The notes: generated from the letters alone by a model not told the origin. DNA of 32,000 nucleotides from Cupriavidus necator (GCF_016127575.1 NZ_CP066020.1:60001-92000); one strand, 5' to 3'. Counted from the stretch's first letter, positions 717 through 21,133 are shown. Made by a program: numbers and translations.

Positions 717-1440
717 ATGCGAGTTGCAACGCCTCGACCCGACAGCCGTTCTTAAGCACGTGAAAGAATAGTTCGACCTCCCAACGCGCGCGGTACCAGT
801 CAATAAGCTGCGCCGCTGCGTCAAGGTCGTCCACCTCGCGATTACTCAGCAGTCGCCATTCAATCGGCTTGACGCCTGCCGGCGGGTCGACCTCCCGGGC
901 GACGATGCAAGTGGCGCTCACCACGCCGCCCGCAGCATCAGGCAACGTGACACGTTGCGCCCACACCTGCTGCCGTACCGCGCGCGCCGGCTGAGCCTGA
1001 CGGGCTGCCAGCGTAAAGTGAATCCTGCCCACTGGCTTACCCGCAGTCACTTGGTCCCACAGCTTGCCGCCGCCAGGCAAGGTGCGATTGTGCTGCGAGC
1101 GCAGTAGCCAATCCGCCGGGTGGCCCAACTCCTTTGCCTTGACCATCAGCGCCATGATGTCCGACTCCCGGTCAGCCACATAGACGAGTCGCGTGGCAGG
1201 CAGTGCGGCCGCCTGTTCGGCGACCCGCTCATATCCTTCGGTCCAGCGGGTACTTTCCTTGATGCCGGGGCGCACGCCATCCGCACCCTTGGGCTCGCGC
1301 GCCCACATGTAGGCGTCAAGCACGCCCAGCGGTTCGCGCGCTGGCGTTACCGCGTAAGTCGGGTGCAGATATAGCCCGCGTTGCGCCTCATACGACAGCG
1401 GTCCCAAGCCTGCGATGGCCTGGCCGTTAAAGTCCAACTC
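717..1440 (-). pseudogene. IS4-family (Tn5/IS50-like) DDE transposase, central fragment (DFNGQ... to ...EALQL)
   Basis: The ORF at 700-1437 contains YVADRESD, IEWRLLSN and YRARWEVELFFHVLKNGCRVEALQL. Its 3' end is cut by the IS3 element and its 5' end by RIT4. It continues in frame from the N-terminal fragment at 15525-15812 (DTTEL|DFNGQ). Confidence 0.8.
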
Positions 1441-1467
1441 TAACGCAGAGTGTATTTTTATGCGGAG
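1441..1467. repeat. RIT4 terminal inverted repeat (ritC-side)
   Basis: TAACGCAGAGTGTATTTTTATGCGGAG; its reverse complement is present at 15472-15498 with one mismatch. Confidence 0.9.
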
Positions 1468-1504
1468 CCCCGTTCATGGAGGCCCCGTTGGCGAATGAAT
1501 TTGA

Positions 1505-1741
1505 CTACTTTTTTCTCTGCATAAGGGAACCCGGTCTTAGAGAGGCGATGAGTTCATCCGTAGCCTTGAAGCGTCCGGAACGCAGATTTGGCGGGACGAT
1601 TGCTTCGAGCGCTTCCAATTTTACCGATGGGTCCGCACGTGTGTAGATCTCGGTCGTCTGCATGTGTGCGTGGCCGAGCCAAAGCGAAACCTTTCTGAGA
1701 TCCTTGGTGGCTTGCAGGACGGACAACGCACAAGTGTGCCT
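1505..1741 (-). pseudogene. ritC: ritC-type tyrosine recombinase, C-terminal fragment (ritC4 remnant)
   Basis: (R)HTCALSVLQATKDLRKVSLWLGHAHMQTTEIYTRADPSVKLEALEAIVPPNLRSGRFKATDELIASL... is colinear with the RitC1 C-terminus (RHTMAMDLLQAGVDRSVIALWLGHESVETTQIYLEA...GRYRPADQLLGFL). It starts exactly at the R-H of the H-x-L-R-H box. Confidence 0.75.
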
Positions 1742-1769
1742 CCTATATCGTTCACGATATAGGAGGCAC
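1736..1769. repeat. 34-bp perfect hairpin palindrome at the RIT1 ritA-side junction
   Basis: GTGCCTCCTATATCG TTCA CGATATAGGAGGCAC: 15-bp perfect arms and a 4-nt loop, with each arm ending in the AGGCAC core. Confidence 0.9.
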
Positions 1770-1897
1770 TATGTGCCCTTCCCGACTATGTCTGGTAATC
1801 GAACGATAGCCCTATTTCGCGGGCAAACAGATGGCCGCAGATAGAGATAGTCTTGACTCCTTCCTTCAGCCCCAGAGCATTCGGGAAGGAGTCCATC

Positions 1898-3136
1898 ATG
1901 AGATACACCATCCATGACCGTGTCGTTCTCGCACGCGCACCAGACGGCCCGCTCGCGTCCCATATCGCCGCCTTTGCAAGCTCGATCGCTGCGCAGGGAT
2001 ACAGCACCCAGTCACTGAAGTATCACGTTCGGCTCGTTGCAGGTTTTAGCCGCTGGCTCGGTCGAAACGGAATTGACTTGCGTAATGTCTGTCCTGATCA
2101 AGCGGCGCGTTACTTACGTTAACGCGCGCGGCACGTGCGACCGGGTCCGGGAGATCGTGCTGCGCTCAAGCATCTCATTGCTTTTCTCGATCGTGAGAGG
2201 CTGATTCCGGCGCAGAGGACGCCCGCGCGTCGGCTGACCCCGGTTGAGTCCTGTACCCTGGCTTACGTTGAGTATCTTCGCGAGGTGCGCGCCCTGTCCA
2301 AGGCGACGATCATCAACTACACGCCGTTCATCAGGGAGTTTCTCGAAGATTGTTTTGGTGACCGGCGCGTCAGGCTTTCGCGTTTGCGTGCCGGCGATGT
2401 CGTGAACTTTGTGCAATTTCAGGCACAGCATCTGCATCTGAAGCGCGCGAAGCTCATGACGGCAGCGCTGCGATCCTTCCTACGTTACGCGTGCTATCGG
2501 GGCGACATGACGCTCGATCTGGCCGCCGCTGTTCCCGTGGTGGCCAACTGGTCGATGCAGTCCATCCCTCGCGGGATTCCCCCAGAGCAGATACAGGAAC
2601 TGCTGGTCAGTATCGATCGACGGACTGCCGTTGGTCGTCGTGATTACGCCATCATCCTGCTACTCGCGCGCCTGGGACTGCGTTCTGGGGAAGTGGCATT
2701 TCTCGACCTCGACGATATTGACTGGAACACAGGAGTTTTAAGCGTGCGCGGCAAGAGTGGCCTGCGTAACGGGCTGCCTTTGCCCGCCGATGTTGGCAAG
2801 GCGATTGCAGCGTACCTTCGCTACGGGCGACCGCAGAGCACGAGTCGCCGTGTATTTTTGCGTGCGAAGGCGCCTTTCACCGGCTTTCGTAGTGCGTGTG
2901 GCGTGGGCTCCATCGTTCGGCATTCGCTCCAGCGCGCCGGTATCAACGCCCCAACCACTGGGGCACACCAGTTTCGTCATGCACTGGCCAGCCAGATGCT
3001 CCGTCACGGCGCGTCACTCCGTGAGATTGGTGAGTTGTTGGGACACCATCATCCACAGACCACGTCGATCTACACGAAGGTCGACATCAAGGCATTGCGT
3101 ACGCTGGCCGTACCGTGGCCGGGAGGTGTGCGATGA
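1898..3136 (+). pseudogene. ritA: ritA1, RitA-type tyrosine recombinase interrupted by an in-frame TAA at 2120-2122
   Basis: The track ORFs 1853-2122 and 2135-3136 are one frame. RIT2 reads ...QYLRYRARHVRPG where RIT1 reads ...RYLR*RARHVRPG (TAT to TAA). A GGAAGGAG RBS precedes the ATG at 1898. Motifs LARLGLRSGE, HQFRH and LGHHHPQTTSIYTKV are present. Confidence 0.85.
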
Positions 3137-4077
3137 ACACGCTGCGGCAGGCCGTTCAGGAGTATCTGGACCTCAGGCGGAGCCTGGGCTTCAAGCTGAG
3201 GGAGGCCGGCAAGGCCTTGCCTGATTTCGTCGCGTTCATGGAGAGGCACCGTGCTTCCTTTATCACCCAGGCGTTGGCGCTCTTGTGGGCCCAGCAACCT
3301 TCCAACGTCCAACCCGCCCGCTGGGCGAGCCGACTCAGTATCGTGCGCGAGTTTGCGCGTCATCGTAGTGCGACCGACCCACGCACACAGATTCCTGCAC
3401 CGGGTCTGCTACCGTTTTCGCCGAAGCGGGCCCGACCATACCTATACTCGAGCGACGAGATTCGCAGACTACTCCATGCTGCGCTTCAGATGCCCTGCCG
3501 CTTCGCGCGTGACGAACTGCAACCATGGACCTATTACTGCCTGTTTGGCTTGCTGAGTGTATCGGGAATGCGCCTGGGCGAAGCGCGCAATCTTGAGCTT
3601 CAGGACATCGATCTGACAGCGGCAATATTGACGATCCGCGGCGCCAAACTTGGCAAGTCCCGGTTCGTTCCACTGCATGCGTCGACCTGCAACGTGCTCG
3701 CGGACTATATTGCACGACGCAAACGTCATTGGGCGGGGCGACCCGTGTCCTCCTACTTGTTCGTGTCTAACCAGGGCAACCGTCTGGATAGTGGCGAGAT
3801 TCATCGACACTTCTATGCATTGTCCCGGCAGATCGGTCTGCGTGGCGCAGCCGACAGTCACGGCCCACGTCTGCATGACATGAGGCACGTATTTGCGACG
3901 AATACGCTTTTACGCTGGTACCGTTCCGGACAGGACCCCGAGCGCCGCCTGCCCATCCTGTCAGCTTACCTCGGTCATGTCCACATCGAGGATACGCAGT
4001 GGTATCTGAACGCCTCGCCGGAGCTGATGCGCGAGGCGATGCGCCGGCTCGAACAGCGCTGGGAGATTCAACCATGA
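3133..4077 (+). CDS. ritB: RitB-type tyrosine recombinase (RIT1)
   Basis: MNTLRQAVQEYLDLRRSLGFKL...; catalytic motifs SGMRLGE, GAKLGKSRFVPLH, HDMRH and LGHVHIEDTQWY. The start overlaps the ritA1 stop (ATGA at 3133-3136). Confidence 0.85.
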   Translation: MNTLRQAVQEYLDLRRSLGFKLREAGKALPDFVAFMERHRASFITQALALLWAQQPSNVQPARWASRLSIVREFARHRSATDPRTQIPAPGLLPFSPKRARPYLYSSDEIRRLLHAALQMPCRFARDELQPWTYYCLFGLLSVSGMRLGEARNLELQDIDLTAAILTIRGAKLGKSRFVPLHASTCNVLADYIARRKRHWAGRPVSSYLFVSNQGNRLDSGEIHRHFYALSRQIGLRGAADSHGPRLHDMRHVFATNTLLRWYRSGQDPERRLPILSAYLGHVHIEDTQWYLNASPELMREAMRRLEQRWEIQP

Positions 4078-5072
4078 CTACTACCGCCAGTCTCGCTCCG
4101 TTGCTGGAGCGTTTCTTTACGCAACGCCTGATGCAGCAGCGCCAGGCGAGTCCCCACACGATTAGTTCCTATCGCGACACCTTTCGTCAATTCCTGAAGT
4201 TCGCGCTGCAACGCCTGCACCGGCAGCCTTCACGCATGAATTTCGAGGAAATCGATGCCCCTTTGATCGTTGCATTTCTCGATGACCTGGAGAAGCGTCA
4301 GGGCGTGAGCGTTCGGAGTCGAAATCTTCGCCTTACGGCAATTCATTCATTCTTTCGTTACGCGGCGCTCGAGACGCCGGCTCATTCCGCGCAGATCCAG
4401 CGAGTGCTCGCTATCCCCAGCAAGCGCTTTACCCGCACCCTGGTGCAATTCCTGACGCGCCAGGAAGTCGATGCGCTGCTCGCCGCACCGGACCAGCGTA
4501 CCTGGTCCGGCCGACGCGATCACGCCTTTTTGCTCTTCGCCGTACAAACTGGCCTGCGCCTGTCCGAGATGACTGGACTTAAGCGCGATGACCTCGTCCT
4601 CGGAATCGGTGCTCACGTGCGGGTGATCGGCAAGGGTCGGAAAGAGCGTTGTACGCCCATCGTCAGATCCACGCTCGCCGTGCTGAAAGCCTGGCTTCGG
4701 GAACCCAAGCGCGGTGAGGGGGACGTGCTTTTTCCGAACGCGAGGGGCGAACGTCTCACCGTTCATGGCGTGCAGTATCTCCTAAACAAGCATCGAGAGA
4801 CCGCGTCAAAAGTTTGTCCGTCGTTGAAGCACAAACAGGTCACCGTTCACCGTTTGAGGCATACGATGGCCATGGACCTTCTGCAGGCGGGCGTTGATCG
4901 TTCCGTGATTGCGCTGTGGCTCGGGCATGAATCGGTGGAAACCACGCAGATTTATCTCGAAGCGACACTTGCGATGAAGGAGCAGGCTCTCGCGAAGACA
5001 TCTCTGGCTCAAGGCAAGCCAGGACGCTACCGGCCTGCAGACCAACTTCTCGGCTTCCTGAATGGACTGTAA
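4074..5072 (+). CDS. ritC: RitC-type tyrosine recombinase (RIT1)
   Basis: MTTTASLAPLLERFFTQRLMQQRQASPHTISSYRDTF...; motifs TGLRLSE, GKGRKERCTPI, HRLRH and LGHESVETTQIYLEA. There is an ATGA overlap with the ritB1 stop at 4074-4077. Confidence 0.85.
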   Translation: MTTTASLAPLLERFFTQRLMQQRQASPHTISSYRDTFRQFLKFALQRLHRQPSRMNFEEIDAPLIVAFLDDLEKRQGVSVRSRNLRLTAIHSFFRYAALETPAHSAQIQRVLAIPSKRFTRTLVQFLTRQEVDALLAAPDQRTWSGRRDHAFLLFAVQTGLRLSEMTGLKRDDLVLGIGAHVRVIGKGRKERCTPIVRSTLAVLKAWLREPKRGEGDVLFPNARGERLTVHGVQYLLNKHRETASKVCPSLKHKQVTVHRLRHTMAMDLLQAGVDRSVIALWLGHESVETTQIYLEATLAMKEQALAKTSLAQGKPGRYRPADQLLGFLNGL

Positions 5073-5184
5073 GGCCACGGAACTATGTCGGGTAATGACT
5101 GGCGGGATGGCTCCGCGAGAAGTGCGCATCGGACGATCACGGACGCTCATCCTCATTACCCGATATAGTCAGGAAGGGCATATA

Positions 5185-5413
5185 GTGCCGCAGTGAATGT
5201 GGTGTCGGCCTCGGCATCCCAGGGCCACACGGTAGGCCTATCTTCTTCGCGGCAGCGCGAAATGCGATTTCGACATCATTGATAATTAATGGCTTTCTTG
5301 CCGTCGAAATGAACACGTGATCGTCGAATGGAGCGTAGGGCCGCCGCCGTTCCAAATACCGCTCCAGCCCGGCCCCAGCGCTGTCGTGCAAGGGAACGAG
5401 GCGGCTCTTGTTG
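5185..5413 (-). pseudogene. ritB: ritB-type recombinase, internal fragment (ritB4 middle part, NKSRLVPLH... to ...HSLRH)
   Basis: The minus-strand frame reads (S)NKSRLVPLHDSAGAGLERYLERRRPYAPFDDHVFISTARKPLIINDVEIAFRAAAKKIGLPCGPGMPRPTPHSLRH. It is colinear with RitB1/RitB3 (GKSRFVPLH...HDMRH). It is bounded by the RIT3 junction palindrome (5414) and the RIT1 end (5184). Confidence 0.7.
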
Positions 5414-5433
5414 CTACGCCGCTAGCGGCGTAG
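5414..5433. repeat. Perfect 20-bp palindrome at the RIT3 ritC-side junction
   Basis: CTACGCCGCTAGCGGCGTAG lies exactly between the ritB4 fragment and the RIT3 terminal IR. Confidence 0.9.
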
Positions 5434-5553
5434 TCGCAACTATGCCGCGTTCACGGCAATGCCGATCAAGCTGGGATCGGATCACGATGATGCTTATAGA
5501 GAGCCCAGCAGGAGGTCATTCCCAAAGTCGCCGGATCGGCATAGTTTTAATGG

Positions 5554-5769
5554 CTAAAGACCCTTGAGAAACGTCGCGAGCTTACTGTCAGGCCGGTATC
5601 GTACGGGCTTGCCATCATGTGGTCCGACATTAGCGAGAATCTTTTCCTTCAGCTCCAGACTGGCATCCAGGTAAATCTGGGTTGTCTGGAGCGATTCGTG
5701 GCCCATCCACAGGGCAATGTTGAATGGATCCACGCCAGCTTGCAATAATTCCATGGCTGCCGTGTGGCG
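5554..5769 (-). pseudogene. ritC: ritC3 C-terminal fragment
   Basis: (R)HTAAMELLQAGVDPFNIALWMGHESLQTTQIYLDASLELKEKILANVGPHDGKPVRYRPDSKLATFLKGL continues in frame from the ritC3 N-terminal fragment, which ends ...VTPHVLRH at 10535. Confidence 0.8.
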
Positions 5770-5797
5770 GCTATATCGTCCACGATATAGGAGGCAC
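5764..5797. repeat. Imperfect 34-bp hairpin palindrome at the RIT2 ritC-side junction (homologue of 1736-1769)
   Basis: GTGGCGGCTATATCG TCCA CGATATAGGAGGCAC: 12 of 15 arm positions pair, with a 4-nt loop. The outer arm ends in CGCCAC, where the perfect copy has AGGCAC. Confidence 0.85.
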
Positions 5798-5908
5798 TAT
5801 ATGCCCTTCCTGACTATATCGGGTAATGAGGGATTTGCCTCCGTGCTCGTCCGATGCGCACTTGTTGTGGAGCCATCCCCCGTCACTACCCGACATAGTT
5901 TCGTGGCC

Positions 5909-6907
5909 CTACAGTCCATTCAGGAAGCCGAGAAGTTCGTCTGCCGGCCGGTAGCGTCCTGGCTTGCCGTGAGCCAGAGATGTCTTCGCAAGAGCCTGCT
6001 CCTTCATCGCAAGTGTCGCTTCGAGATAGATCTGCGTGGTTTCCACCGATTCATGCCCGAGCCACAGTGCAATCACGGAACGATCAACGCCCGCCTGCAG
6101 AAGGTCCATGGCCATCGTATGCCTCAAACGGTGAACGGTGACCTGTTTCTGCTTCAACGATGGACAAATTTTTGACGCGGTCTCTCGATGCTTGTTTAGC
6201 AGATACTGCACGCCATGAACAGTGAGGCGTTCGCCCCTCGCGCTTGGAAACAGCACGTCGTCCTCACCGCGCTGGGGTTCCCGCAGCCAAGCTTTCAGTA
6301 CGGCGAGCGTGGATCTGACGATGGGCGTACAACGCTCTTTCCTACCCTTGCCAATCACCCGCACGTGAGCACCGGTTCCGAGAACAAGGTCATCGCGTTT
6401 GAGTCCGGTCATCTCGGACAGGCGAAGGCCAGTTTGCACGGCGACCAGCAAAAAGGCGTGATCGCGTCGGCCGGCCCAGGTACGCTGGTCCGGTGCGGCA
6501 AGCAGGGCATCGACTTCCTGGCGAGTCAGGAATTGCACCAGGGTGCGGGTAAAGCGCTTGCTGGGGATAGCAAGCACCCGCTGGATCTGAGCGGAATGAG
6601 CCGGCGTCTCGAGCGCCGCGTAACGAAAGAAGGAATGAATTGCCGTGAGGCGAAGATTTCGACTGCGAACGCTCACGCCCTGACGCTGCTCCAGGTCATC
6701 GAGAAATGCAACGATCAAAGGGGCATCGATTTCCTCGAAATTCATGCGTGAAGGCTGCCGGTGCAGGCGTTGCTGCGCGAACTTCAGGAACTGACGAAAG
6801 GTGTCGCGATAGGAACTGATCGTGTGGGGACTCGCCTGGCGCTGCTGCATCAGGCGTTGCGTAAAAAAACGCTCCAGCAACGGAGCGAGACTGGCGGTAG
6901 TAGTCAT
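5909..6907 (-). CDS. ritC: RitC-type tyrosine recombinase (RIT2)
   Basis: It has 12 differences in 332 aa from RitC1 by my count. The start ATG at 6907 overlaps the ritB2 stop (ATGA). The track ORF extends to 6982, but the upstream part overlaps ritB2. Confidence 0.85.
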   Translation of the reverse strand: MTTTASLAPLLERFFTQRLMQQRQASPHTISSYRDTFRQFLKFAQQRLHRQPSRMNFEEIDAPLIVAFLDDLEQRQGVSVRSRNLRLTAIHSFFRYAALETPAHSAQIQRVLAIPSKRFTRTLVQFLTRQEVDALLAAPDQRTWAGRRDHAFLLVAVQTGLRLSEMTGLKRDDLVLGTGAHVRVIGKGRKERCTPIVRSTLAVLKAWLREPQRGEDDVLFPSARGERLTVHGVQYLLNKHRETASKICPSLKQKQVTVHRLRHTMAMDLLQAGVDRSVIALWLGHESVETTQIYLEATLAMKEQALAKTSLAHGKPGRYRPADELLGFLNGL

Positions 6908-7848
6908 GGTTGAATCTCCCAGCGCTGTTCCAGCCGGCGCATCGCCTCGCGCATCAGCTCCGGCGAGGCGTTCAGATACCACTGCGTATCCGCGATGTGG
7001 ACGTGACCGAGGTAAGCTGACAGGATGGGCAGGCGGCGCTCGGGGTCCTGTCCGGAACGGTACCAGCGTAAAAGCGTATTCGTCGCAAATACGTGCCTCA
7101 TGTCATGCAGACGCGGGCCGTGACTGTCGGCTGCGCCACGCAGACCGATCTGCCGGGACAATGCATAGAAGTGTCGATGAATCTCTCCACTATCCAGACG
7201 ATTGCCCTGGTTAGACACGAACAAGTAGGAGGACACGGGTCGCCCCGCCCAATGACGTTTGCGTCGTGCAATATAGTCCGCGAGCACTTTGCAGGTCGAC
7301 GCATGCATTGGAACGAACCGGGACTTGCCAAGTTTGGCGCCGCGAATCGTCAATATTGCCGCCGTCAGATCGATGTCCTGAAGCTCAAGATTGCGCGCTT
7401 CGCCCAGACGCATGCCCGAAACGCTCAGCAAGCCAAACAGGCAGTAATAGGTCCATGGTTGCAGTTCGTCGCGCGCGTAGCGGCAGGGTATCTGAAGCGC
7501 AGCATGGAGTAGTCTGCGAATCTCATCGCTCGAGTATAGGTATGGTCGGGCCCGCTTCGGCGAAAACGGCAGCAGACCCGGTGCAGGAATCTGTGTGCGT
7601 GGGTCGGTCGCACTACGATGACGTGCAAACTCGCGCACGATACTGAGTCGTCGCGCCCAGTGCGCGGGTTGGACGTTGGAAGGTTGCTGGGCCCACATAA
7701 GAGCCAATGCCTGGGTGATGAAGGAAGCGCGGTGCCTCTCCATAAACGCGACGAAATCAGGCAATGCCTTGCCGGCATCTTTAAGCTTGAAGCCCAAGCT
7801 CCGCCTGAGGTCCAGATACTCCTGAACGGCCTGCCGCAGCGTGTTCAT
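6904..7848 (-). CDS. ritB: RitB-type tyrosine recombinase (RIT2)
   Basis: MNTLRQAVQEYLDLRRSLGFKLKDAGK...; same motifs as RitB1. There is an ATGA overlap with the ritA2 stop at 7845-7848. Confidence 0.85.
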   Translation of the reverse strand: MNTLRQAVQEYLDLRRSLGFKLKDAGKALPDFVAFMERHRASFITQALALMWAQQPSNVQPAHWARRLSIVREFARHRSATDPRTQIPAPGLLPFSPKRARPYLYSSDEIRRLLHAALQIPCRYARDELQPWTYYCLFGLLSVSGMRLGEARNLELQDIDLTAAILTIRGAKLGKSRFVPMHASTCKVLADYIARRKRHWAGRPVSSYLFVSNQGNRLDSGEIHRHFYALSRQIGLRGAADSHGPRLHDMRHVFATNTLLRWYRSGQDPERRLPILSAYLGHVHIADTQWYLNASPELMREAMRRLEQRWEIQP

Positions 7849-9083
7849 CGCACACCTCCCGGCCACGGTACGGCCAGGGTACGCAATGCCTTGATGTCGA
7901 CCTTCGTGTAGATCTTCGTGGTCTGCGGATGATGATGTCCCAACAACTCACCAATCTCACTGAGTGACGCGCCGTGACTGAGCATCTGGCAGGCCAGTCC
8001 ATGGCGAAACTGGTGCGCCCCCGTGGTTGGGGCGTCGATGCCGGCGCGCTGGAGCGAGTGCCGAACGATGGAGCCCACGCCACTCGCACCACGAAAGCCG
8101 ATAACAGGCGCCTTTGCACGCAAAAACACACGGCGACTGGTGCTCTGCGGTCGCCCGTCTCGAAGGTATGCTGCAATCGCCTTTCCAACATCGGCGGGCA
8201 AAGGCAGCCCGTTACGCTGGCCACTCTTGCCGCGCACGCTTAAAACTCCTGTGTTCCAGTCAATATCGTCGAGCTCGAGAAATGCCACTTCCCCAGAACG
8301 CAGTCCCAGGCGCGCGAGCAGCAGGATGATGGCGTAATCACGACGACCAACGGCAGTCCGTCGATTGATACTGACCAGCAGTTGCTGTATCTGCTCTGGT
8401 GGAATCCCGCGAGGGATTGACTGCATCGACCAGTTGGCCACGACGGGAACAGCGGCGGCCAGATCGAGCGTCATGTCGCCCCGATAGCACGCGTAACGTA
8501 GGAAGGATCGCAGCGCTGTAGTCATGAGCTTCGCGCGCTTCAGATGCAGACGCAGTGCCTGACATTGCACAAAGTTCACGACATCGCCGGCACGCAAACG
8601 CGAAAGCCTGATGCGCCCGTCACCAAAGCAATCTTCGAGAAACTCCCTTATGAACGGCACGTAATTGACGATCGTTGCTTTGGACAGGGCGCGCGCCTCA
8701 TGCAGATACTCAACGTAAGCCTGTGTACAGGACTCAATAGGGGTCAGCCGACGCTCAGGCATTCTCTGCGCCGAAATCAGCCTCTCACGATCGAGAAAAT
8801 CAATGAGATGCCTGAGCGCAGCACGGTCTCCCGGACCCGGTCGCACGTGCCGCGCACGATAACGTAAGTATTGCGCACTGTGATCAGGACAGACGTTATG
8901 CAAGTCAATTCCGTTTCGGCCAAGCCAGCGGCTAAAACCTGCAACGAGCCTAACGTGGTACTTCAGTGACTGCGTACTGTATCCCTGCACAGCGATCGAG
9001 TTCGCAAAGGCGACGATATGGGACGCGAGCGGGCCTTCTGGTGCGTGTGCGAGAACGACACGGTCATGGATGGTGTATCTCAT
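7845..9083 (-). CDS. ritA: RitA-type tyrosine recombinase (RIT2), intact
   Basis: MRYTIHDRVVLAHAPEGPLASHIVAFANSIAVQGYS... begins at the ATG at 9083 preceded by GGAAGGAG, and is the same length (1239 nt) as ritA1. The 875-aa track ORF (to 10472) is read-through antisense to the ISL3 transposase, not a real extension. Confidence 0.85.
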   Translation of the reverse strand: MRYTIHDRVVLAHAPEGPLASHIVAFANSIAVQGYSTQSLKYHVRLVAGFSRWLGRNGIDLHNVCPDHSAQYLRYRARHVRPGPGDRAALRHLIDFLDRERLISAQRMPERRLTPIESCTQAYVEYLHEARALSKATIVNYVPFIREFLEDCFGDGRIRLSRLRAGDVVNFVQCQALRLHLKRAKLMTTALRSFLRYACYRGDMTLDLAAAVPVVANWSMQSIPRGIPPEQIQQLLVSINRRTAVGRRDYAIILLLARLGLRSGEVAFLELDDIDWNTGVLSVRGKSGQRNGLPLPADVGKAIAAYLRDGRPQSTSRRVFLRAKAPVIGFRGASGVGSIVRHSLQRAGIDAPTTGAHQFRHGLACQMLSHGASLSEIGELLGHHHPQTTKIYTKVDIKALRTLAVPWPGGVR

Positions 9084-9173
9084 GATGGACTCCTTCCCGG
9101 ATGCTCTGGGGCTGAAGGAAGGAGTCAAGACTATCTCTATCTCCGTGCATCCGTTTGCCCATGAAATAGAGAG

Positions 9174-10486
9174 GCCTCTTTTGAATTTCAAGTGGGTGGT
9201 ATCGTGGCGGGTTTCAGGTAAAGAGCAACAAGAGCGATGCATAGCAAACTGTTTGAAGCAGCCCTTGGCATAAGCGATCCGTGGTTCGTCCGGGAAGTCG
9301 ACTTCAACGCGCAAACCAAGACGTTGACGATCCAGATTGACTTTGTCGCCGGCAGCCGCTTTTCCCACCCGGAGGTCGCCGGTGGGCACCCGGTTCACGA
9401 CACGGTGACCAAACGCTATCGGCACCTGAACTTCTTCGAGCACGACTGCTATCTGGAAGTCCGCACGCCACGCGTGAAGCTTCCCGACGGCCGCGTGGTG
9501 TTGGTCGAGCCGGACTGGGCTGGCAAGCTCTCTGGCTTCACGTTGCTGTTTGAAGCCATGGTGGTGGCGCTTGCGCAGCAGATGCCGTTTTCTGCTGTAG
9601 CCAGAACGGTGGGTGAGTCGTGGCATCGCGTGTACGCTATCTGCGAGCGCTATGTCGACCTCGCGGTGGCCGAACTCGATCTGGCCGGCGTGACCGCTGC
9701 CGCCGTTGACGAAACGTCCTACAGGCGCGGTCACAACTACCTGACGCTTGTCGCTGATGCCGACGCGCGTAAGGTCGTGTTTGTGACCGAAGGCAAGGAT
9801 GCTGCCACGGTTGGCAAGTTCGCTGCACATCTGCGCGAGAACAACGCTGCGCCTGAGCAGATCGGGGTGGTCAGTATCGACATGTCGCCGGCGTTCATCA
9901 AGGGCGTCAGCGAGCATTTGCCCAACGCGCGCATCACCTTCGACAAGTTCCATGTCGTGGCTCACGCTTCTGCAGCCGTGGACAAGACCCGGCGTATCGA
10001 ACAGAAGACCGATCCAAGCCTCAAAGGCCTGCGCTGGACGCTGCTCAAGGATCGCGACGGGTTGCCAGCCGCGCAGCGTGCCGATCTCGACGCGTTGATC
10101 GCCAACGTCACGACCAAACGCACTGCCCGTGCCTGGCTGTATCGCGAGCAGTTGCGCGAAATCCTTGAGCGCAAGCAGATCAACGTTGTTTCCGCAATGC
10201 TCGAGCAGTGGTGCACGAACGTCATGCGATCCAAGGTCGAGCCAATGAAGGAGGTCGCGCGCATGATCCGCAAGCATTTCGACGGTATCGTTGCATGGAC
10301 CCAGACGCGCCAGACCAATGGCTTCCTGGAGGCGCTCAACGGCCTGTTCCAAGCCGCCAAGCGCAAGGCCCGCGGTTATGTGAGCTTCAAAACCATGCGC
10401 ACCGTGATCTTCCTGATCGCCGGAAAGCTCGACTTCTCCGCGATCAACCCGCATGCCGCATAACCCACTCATTTTTCAAAAGAGCC
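9174..10486 (+). mobile_element. ISL3-family insertion sequence (1313 bp)
   Basis: The 24-bp imperfect IRs are GCCTCTTTTGAATTTCAAGTGGGT (9174-9197) and the reverse complement of 10463-10486, GGCTCTTTTGAAAAATGAGTGGGT (18/24). An 8-bp direct duplication ATAGAGAG lies at 9166-9173 and 10487-10494. There is a single 408-aa transposase gene. Confidence 0.85.
9237..10463 (+). CDS. ISL3-family transposase
   Basis: MHSKLFEAALGISDPWFVREVDFNAQTKTLTIQIDF...VDETSYRRGHNYLTLVADA...VSIDMSPAFIKGV...FDKFHVV...TNGFLEALNGLFQAAKRKARGY is the characteristic ISL3 layout and motif set. Confidence 0.9.
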   Translation: MHSKLFEAALGISDPWFVREVDFNAQTKTLTIQIDFVAGSRFSHPEVAGGHPVHDTVTKRYRHLNFFEHDCYLEVRTPRVKLPDGRVVLVEPDWAGKLSGFTLLFEAMVVALAQQMPFSAVARTVGESWHRVYAICERYVDLAVAELDLAGVTAAAVDETSYRRGHNYLTLVADADARKVVFVTEGKDAATVGKFAAHLRENNAAPEQIGVVSIDMSPAFIKGVSEHLPNARITFDKFHVVAHASAAVDKTRRIEQKTDPSLKGLRWTLLKDRDGLPAAQRADLDALIANVTTKRTARAWLYREQLREILERKQINVVSAMLEQWCTNVMRSKVEPMKEVARMIRKHFDGIVAWTQTRQTNGFLEALNGLFQAAKRKARGYVSFKTMRTVIFLIAGKLDFSAINPHAA

Positions 10487-10534
10487 ATAGAGAGCTATCT
10501 TTCGATTACAAGACATAGTCGGGAAGGGCATATA

Positions 10535-11323
10535 GTGCCTCAGCACGTGCGGCGTCACTCGTTTCTTTCGCAGCGAAGGACATCCCATGGCAGCCTGGGT
10601 AGCGTACTTTTTCAGGAGACGTTGTACCGCGTCCGGACTGAGATGTCCACCTCGAACACTCGGAAATAGCGCGTCGCTGTTGGGTGTGCGAGGCTCTTTC
10701 ATCCAAGCTTTTAGAATAGCGGCGGTCTCCTTGCTAAAAGGGGTAACGCGCTGTTTTCGACCTTTACCCATAACATCAATGTGCGCGCCTGCGCCGAGGG
10801 TCACGTCCTCGCGTGTGAGGCCGGTCATTTCCGACACACGAAGTCCCGTCTCCACACCCAGTCGGAGTAACGCATGATCGCGACGACCACACCAGGTGCG
10901 CTTATCGGGTGCAGCGAGCAGCGCCTTGACTTCCGGCCGTGTCAGAAAGTGAATGAGCCTGCGATCGTAGCGTTTGTTGGGCATCGACAGCACGCGCTGG
11001 ATCTGCGCGGAATACGCGGGCGTCTCGAAGGCCGCGTAACGGAAGAACGAGCGAATCGCTGTCAGTCGCAGATTTCGGGTGCGGACACTGATAGCCCGGG
11101 TCTTCTCCAGATCATTCAGAAATGCTGTCACGAGCGGCGCATTGATGTCCTCAAATGCCAGATGATCCGGCGGTTTGTGCAGACGCTTGTAGGCAAAACG
11201 AAGCAGCAGCCTGAACGTGTCCCGATAGGAACTGATGGTGTGCGGACTGGCCTGCCGTTGTTGCATGAGACGTTCCGTAAAGAACCGCTGCACTAATGAT
11301 GGGAAACCGACGGTAGATTTCAT
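10535..11323 (-). pseudogene. ritC: ritC3 N-terminal fragment, ending at H-V-L-R-H
   Basis: MKSTVGFPSLVQRFFTERLMQQRQASPHTISSYRDTF...GKGRKQRVTPF...RVTPHVLRH then runs into the RIT2 terminal IR (translated YMPFPTMS...). The start overlaps the ritB3 stop (ATGA at 11320-11323). Confidence 0.8.
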
Positions 11324-12252
11324 GACATATCCTTCCAGCGACGCTCCAGGCGCTTCATCGCCTGCTTCATGAGCTCTGGGTGCTGCTCGACATACCAGTA
11401 TGTATCTCTCGCCCACTGGTGCCCGAGGAACGTCGACAGCACCGGTAACCAACGCACCGGGTCTTTACCCGACCGGTCTAATCTCGCCAGCGTCGTGACC
11501 GCAAATAAATGGCGATAGTCGATCAGGCGGGGAGCGCGCTTTGCTGACGAATCGCGAAGACCGATTTCCCGTGTGAGCGCCGTAAATGTATGAGAAACCA
11601 TGTCTCCACTGAGTGGCTTGCCTTGCGAAGTGATGAACACATGGGTTTCCGGGCGCCCCGCAAGACATCGCGCGCGACGTCGAAGATAGTCTGCAAGTGC
11701 ATCTCGAGTGGAGGAATGAATAGGAACCCACCTCGACTTTCCAAATTTGCTTCCCCGCACCGTCAGTACGCATTCTTTCAAGTCAACGTCTTCGAGTTCC
11801 AGATTGACCGCTTCGCCGGGGCGCAACCCCGTGACGCTTAGCAGTCCTATCAGCGTAAAATATGTCCACCGCCGCAGTCCCGATTCCGGAGGAAGAGCCA
11901 GCGCGGCAGCCAATATCTTCTGGGTTTCCTCATCGGTGTAAAGGTAGGGAGCACGCCGATGATACCGGTGCGGCAACAATTCGGCCCGTGGAATCTCTGT
12001 ATGCGGATCGAAGGCACTCAGATAGCGTGCAAAGCCACGCACCACACCTAATCGCTGAGCCCAGATCACCGGTTGAACCGACGGGGACTTTTGTGCCCAG
12101 GTCAACGCCAGTGACGCGCTGATGTGAGAGGCCCGATGTCGTTCCATAAAGCAGACGAAGTCTTCCAGACGTTGGCCTGCTTCATGGAGTTTGAATCCCA
12201 GACGACGACGCATCGTCAGGTATTCTTCCATTGATTTGCGTAACGTACTCAT
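11320..12252 (-). CDS. ritB: RitB-type tyrosine recombinase (RIT3)
   Basis: MSTLRKSMEEYLTMRRRLGFKLHEAGQ...; motifs TGLRPGE, GSKFGKSRWVPIH, IDYRH and LGHQWARDTYWY. There is an ATGA overlap with the ritA3 stop. Confidence 0.85.
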   Translation of the reverse strand: MSTLRKSMEEYLTMRRRLGFKLHEAGQRLEDFVCFMERHRASHISASLALTWAQKSPSVQPVIWAQRLGVVRGFARYLSAFDPHTEIPRAELLPHRYHRRAPYLYTDEETQKILAAALALPPESGLRRWTYFTLIGLLSVTGLRPGEAVNLELEDVDLKECVLTVRGSKFGKSRWVPIHSSTRDALADYLRRRARCLAGRPETHVFITSQGKPLSGDMVSHTFTALTREIGLRDSSAKRAPRLIDYRHLFAVTTLARLDRSGKDPVRWLPVLSTFLGHQWARDTYWYVEQHPELMKQAMKRLERRWKDMS

Positions 12253-13481
12253 GATCGGGGGCTCGGCCATGGCGGCGCCAAGGTCCGCAGTGAATCCAGA
12301 TCGACCTTCGCGTATATTCTCGTCGAGTCGGGACTTTTGTGGCGCAAGACTTCGCTAATCTCGGCCAGCGAGGATCCTTGACGCAGCATCTGTGTCGCTA
12401 ACGCATGCCGGAATTGATGGGTTCCTTTCCTCAACGAATCGATACCAGCCCGCTCTAGAGCGTATCTGACAACATTGCATACCGCTTTTTCCGTCTTGAA
12501 CCCACGAATCGGCGCGTTTATACGCAGGAAGACACTTCGACTCTCAGAATCCGCGCGACCGTTTTTCAGGTAGTCGGCGATCGCTTCACCCACCGGCGCG
12601 AGTAATGGCAACGGCGACTCCTGACCGCCTTTTCCGTGAATGTTCAACGTGCCCGTTTCCCAATCGATGTCATCCAACGTCAAGGAAACCACCTCGCCGC
12701 TCCGCAACCCCAGCCGGGCAAGGAGGAGCAGAATCGCATAATCTCGGCGGCCGACGGGGCGACGGCGGTCGCAACTGGCCAACGCTCGCCTAGCATACTC
12801 AGGGGATATCGCTTTGGGGATTGATGCCATTGACCAGTGGGCGACCCTGGGGATCGCTGCAGCGAGGTCAAGCTTGATCAAGCCACGATAACGCGCATAC
12901 TGCAAAAACGAGCGCAAGACCTTTGCGATCGATTGCGCTCGCCCTGGACTTTGAGTGGCCTCATGCTGAACAAAGTCGATGATCTCGCGGGCACTGAGAT
13001 CCGAGAGCCGCGTCGCCCCATCACCGAATTGCTTTGTTAAAAACAAATGCGCACACCACCGATATTTCCTGATCGTCGTGGCTGCCAAGCCTCGTTCCTG
13101 GTGCAGATACAAAGAGTATCCGTTTACCAATTTTTCAACTGGTGTCTGCGCACCGGACGCTTCCTTTGCTACGATTCCATTTTCTTGAAGCAATTGTACA
13201 AAGCGTCTTACCGCATATCTCGCGCCGTTCCGATGACAGCGGTGGTGTTCTCGGTAGCGCAGATAACGTTGCGCAGTTTCATGAGTCACTTCCTCGATCG
13301 ACATTTTCTTGCACTTGAGCCACACGCTGAAATCGGCAACGAGAAGCAAGTGTCTGCGAATAGACTCCTGCGCGTAACCTTGATCATTCAGCAGACCTTC
13401 AAATGCACCGAGGTGTTCAGCAAGGGGGCCCTCGGGTGTATCGAGTGAGTGCGACCGCGTTTTTTGGTACAACTTCTCCAT
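12249..13481 (-). CDS. ritA: RitA-type tyrosine recombinase (RIT3)
   Basis: MEKLYQKTRSHSLDTPEGPLAEHLGAFEGLLNDQGYA...; motifs LARLGLRSGE, HQFRH and LRHKSPDSTRIYAKV. The start is chosen by colinearity with RitA1/RitA4; the track ORF begins at 13517. Confidence 0.8.
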   Translation of the reverse strand: MEKLYQKTRSHSLDTPEGPLAEHLGAFEGLLNDQGYAQESIRRHLLLVADFSVWLKCKKMSIEEVTHETAQRYLRYREHHRCHRNGARYAVRRFVQLLQENGIVAKEASGAQTPVEKLVNGYSLYLHQERGLAATTIRKYRWCAHLFLTKQFGDGATRLSDLSAREIIDFVQHEATQSPGRAQSIAKVLRSFLQYARYRGLIKLDLAAAIPRVAHWSMASIPKAISPEYARRALASCDRRRPVGRRDYAILLLLARLGLRSGEVVSLTLDDIDWETGTLNIHGKGGQESPLPLLAPVGEAIADYLKNGRADSESRSVFLRINAPIRGFKTEKAVCNVVRYALERAGIDSLRKGTHQFRHALATQMLRQGSSLAEISEVLRHKSPDSTRIYAKVDLDSLRTLAPPWPSPRS

Positions 13482-13609
13482 GACCTTCGCCTCTTGTAAA
13501 AGCGGGTCTAACATCAATCAGACTATGCCGATCATCCTTCGTTCATTGCCTTGAATTTGCGGCTCGCCACGTCCAAATCGAACATAGTTAACTACGCGGC
13601 ATAGTTGCG

Positions 13610-14098
13610 AAACTTAGAGGATCGAATCACCAGTCCCTCTGGGGTGATGTCTTCGTAGCGTAGGCCGATGGCTTCCGATACCCTTAGCCCGGTGCAAGCA
13701 AGTAATGCGAACAGTGTGCTGTAGGTATATCGCCGCAACGTTTCACGCCCCGACTGGGAGGCTGCCTGAACGAGGTGGCGGACCTCGTCCGTGGAAAAGA
13801 TATAAGGGATAGGTCGAATCCGTTGGCTGCTGCCGAAGACGGGCGGAGGCACTTCATGGCGAGAATCTTCGGCCCGTGCGTACCGAGCAAATCGAATCAC
13901 CTCACCGAGTCGGCGAGCTCGTCGAGGTGCCAAGCGTGCCAATCCAGCCCATTCGATGGCGGTATCGGCGCACACGTGGGATTTACCCCTTGCGTCTGAG
14001 TAGGCGGCGAAGCTGCGCAACAGATTGCCCTGCGACTTAAGTTCAAATCCACAGGCACGGCGCACTTCCAGATATGACTGCACGGTTTGCTTTAACAT
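13610..14098 (-). pseudogene. ritB: ritB4 N-terminal fragment, ending at ...IRSSKF
   Basis: MLKQTVQSYLEVRRACGFELKSQGN...TGLRVSEAIGLRYEDITPEGLVIRSSKF then runs into the RIT3 terminal IR (translated RNYAA*). The start overlaps the ritA4 stop. Confidence 0.8.
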
Positions 14099-15339
14099 GG
14101 CAGTTCCTCCGGCCATGGTTGGGCAATCTGCCGCAACGCGGCGATGTCCACTTTTGCATAAATTTGCGTAGTCGCGACAGATTGATGCCGTAGAACGGCC
14201 GCAATATCCTGCAGGGACGCACCTTGCCCCAACATCGACGTTGCAACCGAATGGCGCAGCACATGGGCGGCGCCTCGGCTCGAGCAGACAACACCAGCTC
14301 GGCGCATTGCCTTCTTAACGATGATGGAGATGGCAGCATGATTTGCAAAGGCTTGAAACGGGGCACACGCGCGGACGAATACCGTATCGGTATCGGTTCG
14401 AGGCCGTCCCTGTCGAAGATAATCCACAATGGCCTGCCCGACTTCCTGTGTCAGAGGCAGGAGTGTCTGCCGCCCGTTTTTGCCTGAGACCGAGATCGAG
14501 GCATCTTTCCAATCGATATCCCCGATGCGCAGATGCCAAATATCGCCGGCGCGAAGCCCCAAACGCGCCAGCAGCAGCAAAATTGCACGGTCCCTCTGAC
14601 CGACTGGCGACGCTGTGTCACATGAAGCGATGACGCGTTCGACTTCGTCGAGTTGCAAATATCGCGGCAGCGTTGACAGGCTCCAATGTGCCAAGACGGG
14701 TATCGCTGCCTCCAGACCGGCAGCGCACTTGCCTTCGGCTATCAGAAACCGAACGAGCATGCGTAATGCCGTCGTGCAGTGCTTTGCCGCCGCCCATCCC
14801 TTCTTCATGCTTTGCTCAAGGATGAACTGGCGCAAGTCCATTGCATTCAGTTTGCCGAGGTCATCCCCTCGTCTGAATAGATCTCGAAGCGCAATACCGT
14901 GGTTGTACAAAGTGGCATCACTGGTTCCACGCTGTTGGCGCATCCATTGGCAGAATGCGAAGAACTGAACTGATTCCAGGTCCGCTGCAAGCGCAGTAAA
15001 ACCGATTGCCCGGGTGCTGATTCCCCCTTGGTACGTCAGGAACATCCGCGCACCCCGTAACGATACGATGCGCCGCTGATGCCCAAAGCCCTGGCATTGG
15101 CATCGACTCAAATGTTCAGCGAAACGTTCAAGAGTCAATTCGTTAAAACTGGGAAGCGGTATGCCTTCCCGATTCGCCCAACACAGGAAGTGCGATGCCG
15201 CAGCAATACGGGTGCAAATAGAACTCTTCGCGTAACCGAGCTGCTCCAGGTATTGAGAGAAGCCTTCAAGCAGCGGGCCGCCTGGGCGAGAGAGAAGCAG
15301 TTGAACGTGCGAAGGGGATTTGAAGTACTGACTAAGCAT
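14092..15339 (-). CDS. ritA: RitA-type tyrosine recombinase (RIT4)
   Basis: MLSQYFKSPSHVQLLLSRPGGPLLEGFSQYLEQLGYA...; motifs LARLGLRAGD, HVLRH and LRHQSVATTQIYAKV. The ATG at 15339 is preceded by AGGAGGA. Confidence 0.8.
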   Translation of the reverse strand: MLSQYFKSPSHVQLLLSRPGGPLLEGFSQYLEQLGYAKSSICTRIAAASHFLCWANREGIPLPSFNELTLERFAEHLSRCQCQGFGHQRRIVSLRGARMFLTYQGGISTRAIGFTALAADLESVQFFAFCQWMRQQRGTSDATLYNHGIALRDLFRRGDDLGKLNAMDLRQFILEQSMKKGWAAAKHCTTALRMLVRFLIAEGKCAAGLEAAIPVLAHWSLSTLPRYLQLDEVERVIASCDTASPVGQRDRAILLLLARLGLRAGDIWHLRIGDIDWKDASISVSGKNGRQTLLPLTQEVGQAIVDYLRQGRPRTDTDTVFVRACAPFQAFANHAAISIIVKKAMRRAGVVCSSRGAAHVLRHSVATSMLGQGASLQDIAAVLRHQSVATTQIYAKVDIAALRQIAQPWPEELPC

Positions 15340-15471
15340 GACGTCCTCCTTGAGCAGAAGTCTCCAGTCGAGTGGCCAGAAAGACGTCAATATTATGCGG
15401 AGCAATGCCGAGCAAACGCGATACTCGATCTGCTTTGAGAGAAGTCCAGTTACATCCGCTTCGGTGAACTA

Positions 15472-15498
15472 CTCCGCATTAAAATACACTCTGCGTTA
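15472..15498. repeat. RIT4 terminal inverted repeat (ritA-side)
   Basis: CTCCGCATTAAAATACACTCTGCGTTA. A further inverted partial copy, TATGCGGAG, lies at 15394-15402 inside the same end. Confidence 0.9.
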
Positions 15499-15530
15499 GA
15501 GCTGTAACGCGGTGCACGGCGTTACAGCTC
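15499..15530. repeat. 32-bp near-perfect palindrome at the RIT4 / IS4-transposase junction
   Basis: GAGCTG TAACGC GGTGCACG GCGTTA CAGCTC (30/32 self-complementary). The arms combine the 6-bp core and the first 6 nt of the terminal IR. Confidence 0.9.
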
Positions 15531-15812
15531 CGTGGTGTCTTGGATGCATAGCACCACTTCGCAAGCTCGCATTCGCTCGGCTGAGCTCTGCCAGTGGGGA
15601 GCCAGAATATCGCGCCAGTCCAGTTCATCCTGAGCCAGGAAGCGGTATGCCGCAGCCGTTTCCGCCCAGCCGCCGCATGCGCTGGGGATGCTTGCCGTCG
15701 GCTTCTCTGCGAGCCGCTCCGCTAGCAGCACCGCCCGCTTGTTCAGGCGCTGGTCGCCCAAGTCAATGTCCTTGAATTCTGCCGCTGCCCAACTCGTTGC
15801 CTCTCGCTTCAT
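15525..15812 (-). pseudogene. IS4-family (Tn5/IS50-like) transposase, N-terminal fragment ending at ...CIQDTTEL
   Basis: MKREATSWAAAEFKDIDLGDQRLNKRAVLLAERLAEKPTASIPSACGGWAETAAAYRFL... is a typical Tn5-type transposase N-terminus. The frame is broken at 15525 by the RIT4 junction. An ATG at 15812 is the likely start (the track ORF begins at a TTG at 15830). The outer end of this IS (somewhere in 15830-15900) could not be defined. Confidence 0.8.
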
Positions 15813-16178
15813 GTGCCGCCCAAAATGCAAGAGTGAACGACAATCCGAAAGAGTTTACAACCCCACCCGCTATGTCATTGACCGTAAACGACTTTTCGCG
15901 GCACACCATGGGTCACGACTTGTGTGTAATGGGGTGCCTCGAAGGATCGTCTGCCTGCGCAAGGGCAGAGAAAGTTAAATTCTATCAACTCAATCTGGAG
16001 GATGCGGATCTAATCAGTCGAAAACAACGGGTGCTGTTCGTCGATGCCTCAAAGGACGCGACATTAGACAGCTTTCGCTTGTATAGGGCGGAGCCGAAGA
16101 TGGATTTCAGTTTTACCTCGCATGGGCGTTGTTGCACAAATCGAATTTGAAGGCGGAGTTACCCCTGAGTGGCGAAAT

Positions 16179-21022: not shown

Positions 21023-21133
21023 GCAGCCACCGCCGTGTCAAGGGTGCGCGCGACCAGCGTCGACAGGTGCACGCCCCAGCCATCCTGGACAGCGTCGAAC
21101 AGCTTGCAATTCTCGCGGTAACCGAGGTAGCGC
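21019..21133 (-). pseudogene. C-terminal remnant of the first module recombinase (…RY LGYRENCKLFDAVQDGWGVHLSTLVARTLDTAVAA*)
   Basis: My translation of the minus strand is in frame with the stop at 21019-21021, which overlaps the next gene's ATG. It resumes at GCGCTA|C, the same core at which the N-terminal part breaks at 24686-24691. Confidence 0.65.

Follow-up and report, generated by a model that had tools for sequence, protein, structure and literature searches.

Why do two related transposons on one plasmid carry homologous palindromes on opposite element ends? The question is raised by a 32,000-nt stretch of Cupriavidus necator DNA (GCF_016127575.1, NZ_CP066020.1:60001-92000; hereafter the window), which is part of the megaplasmid pHG1 of C. 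necator H16 (window position 1700 equals NC_005241.1 position 31877, at 100% identity). pHG1 has been named as rich in RIT elements "in complex combinations" (PMC3414803). Like the two copies at issue here, RIT1 and RIT2, RIT elements consist of three overlapping tyrosine recombinase genes, ritA-ritB-ritC, and imperfect inverted repeats (IRs) (Van Houdt 2009/2012). These poorly understood three-recombinase transposons occur in many bacterial phyla and are frequent on plasmids. The RIT literature mentions variation at the ends and palindromic sequence without explanation, counts both target specificity and movement among the points not yet tested, and raises the question of why a RIT should require three recombinases. 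An earlier, sequence-only reading of the window had proposed that an excised circle joins the two ends into a large palindromic site, either arm of which can serve for insertion, with in-situ inversion of the element as the alternative. Our analysis of these copies and their relatives suggests that the palindrome is probably the centre of the RIT's own joined-ends recombination site, with two mirrored cores.

Structure and insertion sites of RIT1 and RIT2

RIT1 and RIT2 each comprise three adjacent tyrosine recombinase genes on the same strand with short overlaps, the arrangement (overlaps of 4-8 bp) by which RITs are recognized; RIT2 is the mirror image of RIT1. The two copies had been described as near-identical, but they share 94.3% identity over 3380 nt. 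All six proteins match Xer-type tyrosine recombinase models (generic matches below cut-offs), and the catalytic motifs are HQFRH..LGHHHPQTTSIY in RitA, HDMRH..LGHVHIEDTQWY in RitB and HRLRH..LGHESVETTQIY in RitC. The subfamilies are marked by two CB domains in RitA and an extra C-terminal helix in RitC. Each element encodes three recombinases of 314-412 aa, with no fourth gene between the IRs, which are imperfect, about 35 bp long, and read CACTATRTGCCCTTCCYGACTATRTC.. at both ends. Inserted copies read, in order, target N-terminal half, hexamer O_L, IR, rit genes, second IR (IR'), inner hexamer O_i, a centre of the form M-4nt-M', outer hexamer O_o, and target C-terminal half. The features of RIT1 and RIT2 are as follows.

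1507-1735, - strand: target C-terminal half beside the RIT1 unit, a RIT4 ritC-like C-terminus (TCALSVLQ..WLGHAHMQTTEIY..) with 81% identity to RitC of the related locus L108
1736-1769: RIT1 34-bp junction unit, outside the ritA-side IR
1769-1803, + strand: RIT1 ritA-side IR, CTATGTGCCCTTCCCGACTATGTCTGGTAATCG, with motif M1, CTATGTGCC, and motif M2, GACTATGTC
1898-3136, + strand: RIT1 ritA, tyrosine recombinase pseudogene, TAA at codon 75 (about 2120-2122)
3133-4077, + strand: RIT1 ritB, ATGA overlap with ritA
4074-5072, + strand: RIT1 ritC, ATGA overlap with ritB
5151-5185, - strand: RIT1 ritC-side IR, bare end
5186-5191, - strand: RIT1 O_L hexamer GCGGCA, within the Leu-Arg-His codons CTG CGG CAC of a ritB-like target fragment (..PTPHSLRH)
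5192-5407, - strand: target N-side fragment beside the RIT1 bare end, middle part of a RIT4 ritB-like gene (KSRLVPLH..PTPHSL)
5554-5763, - strand: RIT3 ritC C-terminal half beside the RIT2 unit (TAAMELLQAGVD..WMGHESLQTTQIY..)
5764-5797: RIT2 34-bp junction unit, outside the ritC-side IR, homologous to the RIT1 unit
5797-5831, + strand: RIT2 ritC-side IR
5909-6907, 6904-7848 and 7845-9083, - strand: RIT2 ritC, ritB and ritA, all reading frames intact
9172-10486, + strand: ISL3-family insertion sequence (transposase 9237-10463) that splits the inner part of the RIT2 ritA-side end
10501-10535, - strand: RIT2 ritA-side IR, bare end
10536-10541, - strand: RIT2 O_L hexamer GAGGCA, within the codons CTG AGG CAC of RIT3 ritC (..VTPHVLRH)

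RIT2 thus has intact genes and an interrupted end, and RIT1 has intact ends and a nonsense codon in ritA; the ISL3-family insertion is flanked on both sides by ATAGAG.

Both palindromes were found where the sequence-only reading had placed them. That of RIT1 (1736-1769), outside the ritA-side IR, is a perfect inverted repeat, GTGCCTCCTATATCGT/ACGATATAGGAGGCAC, of 16+2+16 nt (equivalently 15+4+15). Its first base, G1736, is the pairing partner of the C in the target His codon, and its last, C1769, is IR base 1; between them lie O_o (TGCCTC, 1737-1742; reverse complement GAGGCA), the centre CTATATCG-TTCA-CGATATAG (1743-1762) and O_i (GAGGCA, 1763-1768). The homologous RIT2 palindrome (5764-5797), outside the ritC-side IR, is complementary at 13/16 positions, and all three mismatches fall in the exchangeable hexamer (TGGCGG vs TGCCTC). 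It consists of O_o (TGGCGG, 5765-5770; reverse complement CCGCCA), the centre (5771-5790) and O_i (GAGGCA, 5791-5796), followed by C5797 as IR base 1. Hairpins with arms of at least 12 nt occur at three sites in the real window and in none of 60 Markov-1 simulated windows.

Beyond the palindrome, the flanks of both copies encode RHT.. and then box II of a tyrosine recombinase, bearing out the earlier observation that the palindrome adjoins the C-terminal half of the interrupted gene. Since the bare ends stop at ..PTPHSLRH (RIT1) and ..VTPHVLRH (RIT2), both elements lie exactly in Arg-His codons, with the palindrome downstream.

The unit occurs on either element end among relatives

To place RIT1 and RIT2 among their relatives, we scanned one genome per species with RitB, which yielded 80 loci, and added two plasmid relatives. 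A pattern for the IR tip recovered 114 termini in the survey loci: 50 were bare, 44 carried a unit, 12 were cut by contig ends and eight were of other kinds. The 50 bare termini finish in H-x-[LMIFV]-R-H codons. Those with a unit carry 33-35 nt homologous to the window palindromes (34 nt in all but one), and the flank beyond reads RH[TSA]xA..LL..G.D..I..LGH....TT, that is, RH plus box II, in about 39/44. The RIT1/RIT2 family targets the H-x-L-R-H codons of tyrosine recombinase genes. Homologous sites lacking an insertion also lack the unit: an intact RIT3-like ritC in pENH92 reads CACGTGCTGAGACATACGGCG, and in intact IS91-linked integrase genes the alignment runs through the insertion point without a break. 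RIT1 ritC itself (4842-4860) and its RIT2 equivalent hold the family target motif, VTVHRLRHT (..TTG AGG CAT ACG), and copies of this family could in principle insert into each other, as RIT2 did into RIT3.

The sequence-only reading depended on the palindrome not being fixed to one element end, and among the relatives it is not. Of the complete copies, 33 combine a bare end with a unit end; 20 of these have the unit ritA-side and 13 ritC-side, in every case next to the target C-terminal half. Two copies depart from this pairing: L009 (about 3603-7099) has a unit at both ends and L022 (378-3799) a bare H-x-x-R-H at both; they look like reciprocal products of recombination between RIT copies. 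Other complete copies have a displaced unit or a rearranged end (L004, L005, L020, L023, L041 and L060).

Identical bodies carry the unit on opposite ends

Because the 18-nt centre is asymmetric in many relatives, its orientation can be read there. L018 and L019 have bodies that are 100% identical over 3423 nt, lie at different loci and bear the unit on opposite ends. The same holds within the set L051/L052/L067 (bodies 100% identical) and for L028/L055 (99.8%), again at different loci. Within each of these three sets, members share one centre sequence when read in the element frame, and it shows four to eight mismatches against the reverse orientation. Across more distant copies, the asymmetric centre TATGTCTTGATCGATATA is the same in the element frame in three ritA-side (L034, L043, L056) and four ritC-side copies (L039, L040, L044, L045); the bodies compared (L039, L043, L045) share 86-90% identity. 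Identical bodies, opposite unit ends and a constant centre orientation imply that the ritC-end IR, the unit and the ritA-end IR were once contiguous and were opened on either side of the unit, as the sequence-only reading had supposed. Read from these alignments, unit placement is a circular permutation of the element.

The centre also flips relative to the body, as in L014 vs L016 (97.9% identical), L012 vs L019 and L064 vs L034. There are 29 flipped pairs with the unit on the same side and 23 on opposite sides, so that flipping is independent of which end bears the unit. Such flips are what occasional recombination between mirrored cores would give over longer times.

Two mirrored candidate cores and an exchangeable hexamer

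Column statistics over 41 units gave the layout G/A-TG-NNN-N, then Y-TAT-N-T..centre..A-N-ATA-R, then N-MGN-CA-C, with the adjoining IR starting CTATNTNCC. Little or no variation occurs in unit columns 9-11, 13, 22 and 24-26 or in the IR tip CTATNT. TAT.T and A.ATA are constant beside each hexamer, whereas the centre and hexamer positions 1, 2 and 4 vary. Each O is thus 6 bp, N-MGN-CA, between inverted YTATNT arms, which are supplied by the IR tip (M1) on one side and by half of the centre (M) on the opposite side. An O with its two arms has the form of a predicted core of the lox/FRT/dif type, ANATAR-N6-YTATNT, and the unit with two IR tips contains two such candidate cores that mirror each other at a distance of about 28 bp. 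At the bare end and the inner core, CA is always followed by C, which is an IR base there; at the outer junction the following base is C or T (33/8) and is part of the target His codon. One edge of the exchanged segment is therefore fixed. The 34-bp unit belongs to the RIT element and defines its real ends.

The hexamers themselves bear the marks of coding DNA. O_i is non-coding, yet its positions 2-4 form an Arg codon in 41/41 units (CGG 13, CGC 8, CGA 8, AGG 7, CGT 5), followed by CA. AGC and AGT are absent from O_i and O_o (0/18 C/T third bases among A-first codons vs 39% among C-first; p about 1e-4, with kinship ignored), and variation at position 1 resembles that of a wobble base in the Leu codon before it. 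Copies with 100% identical bodies also differ in their hexamers. Together, the Arg-codon form, the Leu-like wobble and the turnover in identical copies argue that hexamers are exchanged with targets at each move. The sequence-only reading had instead proposed a fixed core, AGGCAC, abutting the opposite end; RIT2 does have AGGCAC there, but RIT1 has CGGCAC, and the fixed core gives way to a variable, target-derived N-MGN-CA.

Comparison with homologues of the targets suggests which hexamer came from the target. In RIT2, O_L (GAGGCA) is nearer to the homologue's GAGACA than is O_o (CCGCCA), and in RIT3, O_L (TCGCAA) is nearer to the homologue's CCGCAG than is O_o (CAACAA). L051 and L052, inserted in paralogous targets, share O_L and not O_o. 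The hexamers of L018 and L019 fit a derivation of L019 from an L018-type donor, the target-derived O_L becoming the new inner hexamer. Judged by these patterns, hexamers are likely carried over from earlier targets by the 6-bp rule of SE and Tn554 elements described below. Among 33 copies, all three hexamers differ in 13, O_i equals O_o in eight, O_L equals O_i in five, O_L equals O_o in two, and all are equal in five.

Proposed mechanism and alternative explanations

We propose that recombination between the bare-end core and the outer core would join both IRs via O-centre-O into one large palindrome. In the H16 family these joined ends would read GGGCATATAG-NNNNNN-CTATATCG-NNNN-CGATATAG-NNNNNN-CTATRTGCCC, one hexamer being the donor's O_L. 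Reinsertion would be strand exchange at one of the two cores with the target hexamer. The 28 bp beyond the crossover would stay on the unused IR, leaving the unit ritA-side or ritC-side and on a constant side of the polar target hexamer. The hexamers of the two partners being non-homologous, the target's own would stay at the bare end and the element's, from its earlier site, would go to O_o. Occasional recombination of the mirrored cores would flip the centre relative to the body.

Several observations weigh against this proposal. No head-to-tail junction was found in 108 loci or in IMG/VR (GGTAGATAGTG-N26-30-CACTATCTACC), and in a mobilome study of another host exonuclease treatment enriched RIT DNA, but mapped reads revealed no circle junction (PMC5737581). 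A palindromic junction that resembles existing ends is hard to map, which may explain missed circle junctions in that study. Target half-sites are unlike the element arms. The plasmid collection contains no near-identical empty target alleles, and the target-derived hexamer was therefore judged from homologues of 71-88% identity and by parsimony. O_i equals O_o in 13/33 copies (raw count), as might result from pairing or homogenization in a hairpin. Many loci are related by descent, and counts such as 20 and 13 of 33 do not equal independent events.

The hexamer equalities bear on an alternative in which a single strand folds, as in CTX attP(+) or attC: an IR-unit-IR hairpin would present one double-stranded core, M1-O-M, with a 4-nt loop, single-strand exchange and subsequent replication would leave the entire hairpin region at one end, and use of either strand would give either orientation. 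Hairpin intermediates for RIT elements have been proposed by Nielsen et al. The reconstructed RIT1 junction folds into a stem of some 50 bp (-40.6 kcal/mol, z = -13.5), as follows from its construction; no more than 0-4 nt separate the centre halves in each of the four families; and the target hexamer is apparently intact at one junction, as after single-strand exchange. The equalities lean slightly the same way, since O_i = O_o and O_L = O_i are the commonest partial ones and O_L = O_o the rarest, as expected from stem pairing. However, the centre halves are poorly complementary in many subfamilies (4-12 of 18 positions asymmetric) and 13/33 copies have three different hexamers, so that stem pairing is not conserved. 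Centre flips would need double-stranded inversion anyway, SE elements, which follow the same 6-bp rule, are reported with double-stranded circles, and the folded strand predicts the same products as a double-stranded circle. We consider it unlikely that the folded strand is the route taken.

Nor do we favour one-way insertion followed by inversion of the body between the bare-end and inner cores, the palindrome staying beside the target C-terminal half. These two cores are mutually inverted, so that such a reaction would be plausible on chemical grounds; the centres of L014 (ritC side) and L016 (ritA side) have the same target-frame orientation; and the 4-nt centres of RIT1 (TTCA) and RIT2 (TGGA, element frame) are closer as reverse complements (one vs two mismatches). 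Yet inversion predicts a flipped centre at the same locus, and L018/L019, L051/L052/L067 and L028/L055 show the opposite on both counts, which makes inversion alone insufficient and contradicts the in-situ alternative of the sequence-only reading as the sole route. L014 and L016 moreover lie in different target genes and so are not one insertion before and after inversion, and the flips described above are as frequent in same-side as in opposite-side pairs. Inversion as the only route is thus very improbable. Still harder to credit is a palindrome outside the transposition machinery, whether it was already present in the target or is a separate mobile insert of small size, a P-nucleotide-like repair by-product or a terminator or regulatory hairpin. 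The palindrome does lie beyond the long IRs, and short palindromes are common as terminators. But intact target genes lack it, each copy has exactly one, and the two halves, which are similar to M1 and M2 of the element, vary together with the family. An origin as a P-nucleotide-like or other de novo product was rejected, since the asymmetric centre is inherited unchanged at new loci. There is no T-run after 1769 or before 5764 as in an intrinsic terminator, and the unit lies upstream of ritA in 20/33 copies and downstream of ritC in the others.

Other RIT families in the window

The two-core design recurs in three other RIT families of the window (RIT3, RIT4 and RIT5), which have other targets, and the RIT3 and RIT4 families also show either-end placement. 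The features concerned are as follows.

5408-5439: RIT3 junction unit, ritC side, O_o TTGTTG (reverse complement CAACAA), O_i TCGCAA
13604: RIT3 bare end, with O_L TCGCAA at 13605-13610, within the K-F-R-K codons of RIT4 ritB
15499-15530: RIT4 junction palindrome, ritA side
21128-21159: RIT5 junction palindrome, perfect 16+16 (32 bp), ritA side
21154-21188 and 24657-24691: RIT5 IRs
21206-22561, 22554-23537 and 23534-24544: RIT5 ritA, ritB and ritC

For the RIT3 family we used the window copy, two plasmid loci and metagenome loci. The family core is GCGGCGTAG-N6-CTATGCCGC, the centre is CTACGCCGC-TA-GCGGCGTAG, and the IR starts CTATGCCGC, at 5440 in RIT3. The unit is ritA-side in L086, L088 and L090 and ritC-side in the window RIT3 and L083. 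The bare ends interrupt RitB-like genes at ..(S/T)-K-F-x-K codons, with hexamers of the form Y-NNN-AA, and an empty homologous site has exactly 6 bp between the flanks. This family targets the K-F-x-K-S-R codons of tyrosine recombinase genes. The RIT4 family palindrome is ritA-side in the window and L107 and ritC-side in L108, and the targets are IS4 and IS21 genes. An element labelled E4, considered as a two-gene BIM-like element, proved to be a RIT with an internal deletion, and that candidate was rejected.

In RIT5 all three hexamers are identical (O_L = O_i = O_o = GCGCTA). Its bare end lies at ..STTERY of a divergent 449-aa open reading frame (ORF; 24692-26040) that has no Pfam or NCBIfam match even at E = 10. 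By motifs read by eye (ARIQT, HDLRAT, WHVQPSTTERY) this ORF looks like a recombinase gene, with the insertion at the putative catalytic Tyr codon. Downstream of it are two overlapping 626-aa ORFs on the - strand (17265-19145 and 19142-21022), neither of which has a Pfam or NCBIfam match; the pair and the divergent recombinase-like gene may form an undescribed module.

Relation to known recombination systems

Individual traits of the proposed RIT site have counterparts elsewhere. Short inverted arms around an asymmetric 6-8-bp overlap that sets polarity are shared with loxP, FRT and dif; those are single sites whose overlaps must match, whereas the RIT overlap is freely variable and two cores stand back to back about 28 bp apart. 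In Tn916 and CTnDOT, the excised element takes bases of its flanks along as coupling sequences, and the overlap may be heterologous; unlike RITs, these are large conjugative elements with a single integrase and Xis and lack a palindromic double core. The CTX attP(+) and integron attC sites are inverted sites that fold into a hairpin substrate, and the whole folded region lies at one end after integration. They differ from RITs in using host XerCD or IntI and in a proven single-strand exchange, which for RITs is a rival model only. Joined terminal inverted repeats are the reactive site of the circular intermediate of IS3, IS30 and IS911, which insert in either orientation; these elements, however, have DDE transposases and target duplications and lack a junction spacer at one end.

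In SE and Tn554, which are multi-recombinase tyrosine transposons, the joined-end 6 bp are non-homologous to the target, the attB 6 bp stay at attL and the 6 bp of the donor's left flank go to attR (PMC10214605). RIT hexamers probably follow the same 6-bp fingerprint/footprint rule. Unlike RITs, SE and Tn554 have a single joined-end core and use one large and one ordinary recombinase with accessory proteins (Tfp/Srap or TnpC); RITs for their part have three recombinases of ordinary size and a duplicated, mirrored core. We rate RITs as a double-core, orientation-free version of the SE/Tn554-type mechanism that homes into recombinase catalytic codons. Less than probable, though possible, is that RITs are a distinct mechanistic class with two-fold symmetric double-core joined ends, possibly as a hairpin, that would let a site-specific system insert either way with a 6-bp record of past targets on each core; in this class the three recombinases might divide the IR-tip, centre and target half-sites among them and the families home into catalytic codons (Arg-His for RIT1/RIT2, the KFxKSR Lys-hairpin for RIT3, Tyr for RIT5), thereby disabling the recombinases of rivals. 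The either-end unit, the two-core layout, hexamer carry-over and catalytic-codon targeting were not found in the RIT literature, a scope outside which Ricker 2013 falls.

Our analysis defines the ends, cores, 6-bp overlap and targets of RITs and links them mechanistically to SE and Tn554. The either-end unit suggests how RITs insert in either orientation, and the puzzle of "variation at the ends" may come down to exchangeable hexamers and that unit. Disruption of the catalytic codons of other recombinases would be an unusual conflict between mobile elements. Such targeted disruption accounts for the nested recombinase "junkyard" on pHG1. For annotation, many "truncated integrase" fragments beside RITs are two halves of one target gene.

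Organization of the window and additional observations

The elements of the window are nested as follows.

700-1437 and 15522-15830: halves of an IS4-family transposase gene, split by RIT4
About 1438-15498: RIT4, an old degenerate RIT, its ritB-like gene split by RIT3
1769-5185, + strand: RIT1, flanked by the middle part of RIT4 ritB and the C-terminal end of RIT4 ritC
5440-13604, - strand: RIT3, its ritC split by RIT2
5797-10535, - strand: RIT2, its ritA-side end region split by the ISL3-family insertion sequence
21154-24691: RIT5, a fifth trio

The flanks of RIT1 come from two different RIT4 genes, ritB up to the RH codons and ritC from the RH codons on; RIT1 therefore sits not in a single intact gene but on a deletion junction at which about 1 kb between the RH sites was lost. 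L005 (3700) has the same unit-side flank as RIT1, and its bare end is joined to a pseudo-site, AAGGAGG-ACGTCA-TG, upstream of RIT4 ritA (window about 15340). The flanks of RIT1 and L005 suggest one-ended deletions arising from the bare end.

Among the RIT1-family relatives, integrase-carrying elements of the IS91 type are the commonest targets. In five copies the unit is replaced by one recurrent flank, ..CCCGCGTCAGCGGGTTAGTMC.. (also ..CCCGCGTCAGCGGGTTAGTAC..), at the following positions.

L004 6551, L020 6793, L057 6935 and L080 3646: recurrent flank, RIT1 family
L097 126: recurrent flank, RIT3 family

We considered the 3' end of a group IIC intron for this flank and rejected it: Rfam gave no match, and the neighbouring ORFs in L057 and L080, the two copies checked, encode an integrase and a Y2 transposase of the IS91 family. 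An IS91-family end is thus the most likely identity of the flank. In two plasmid copies, L041 (3646) and L060 (4104), from Mesorhizobium and Microvirga, another recurrent flank, GTCGCGACGCCAAGCTAAAAACGCTCTG, stands in place of the unit.

At the left window edge (1-680) lies an IS3-family transposase fragment. Near the right edge, 29785-30840 encodes a [NiFe] hydrogenase small subunit, and the pHG1 hydrogenase region begins there. A GC-rich intergenic hairpin with a 14-bp stem, CAACAGCAAGGGGCC..GGCCCCTTGCTGTT, at 26982-27015 is terminator-like, without a clear T-run.

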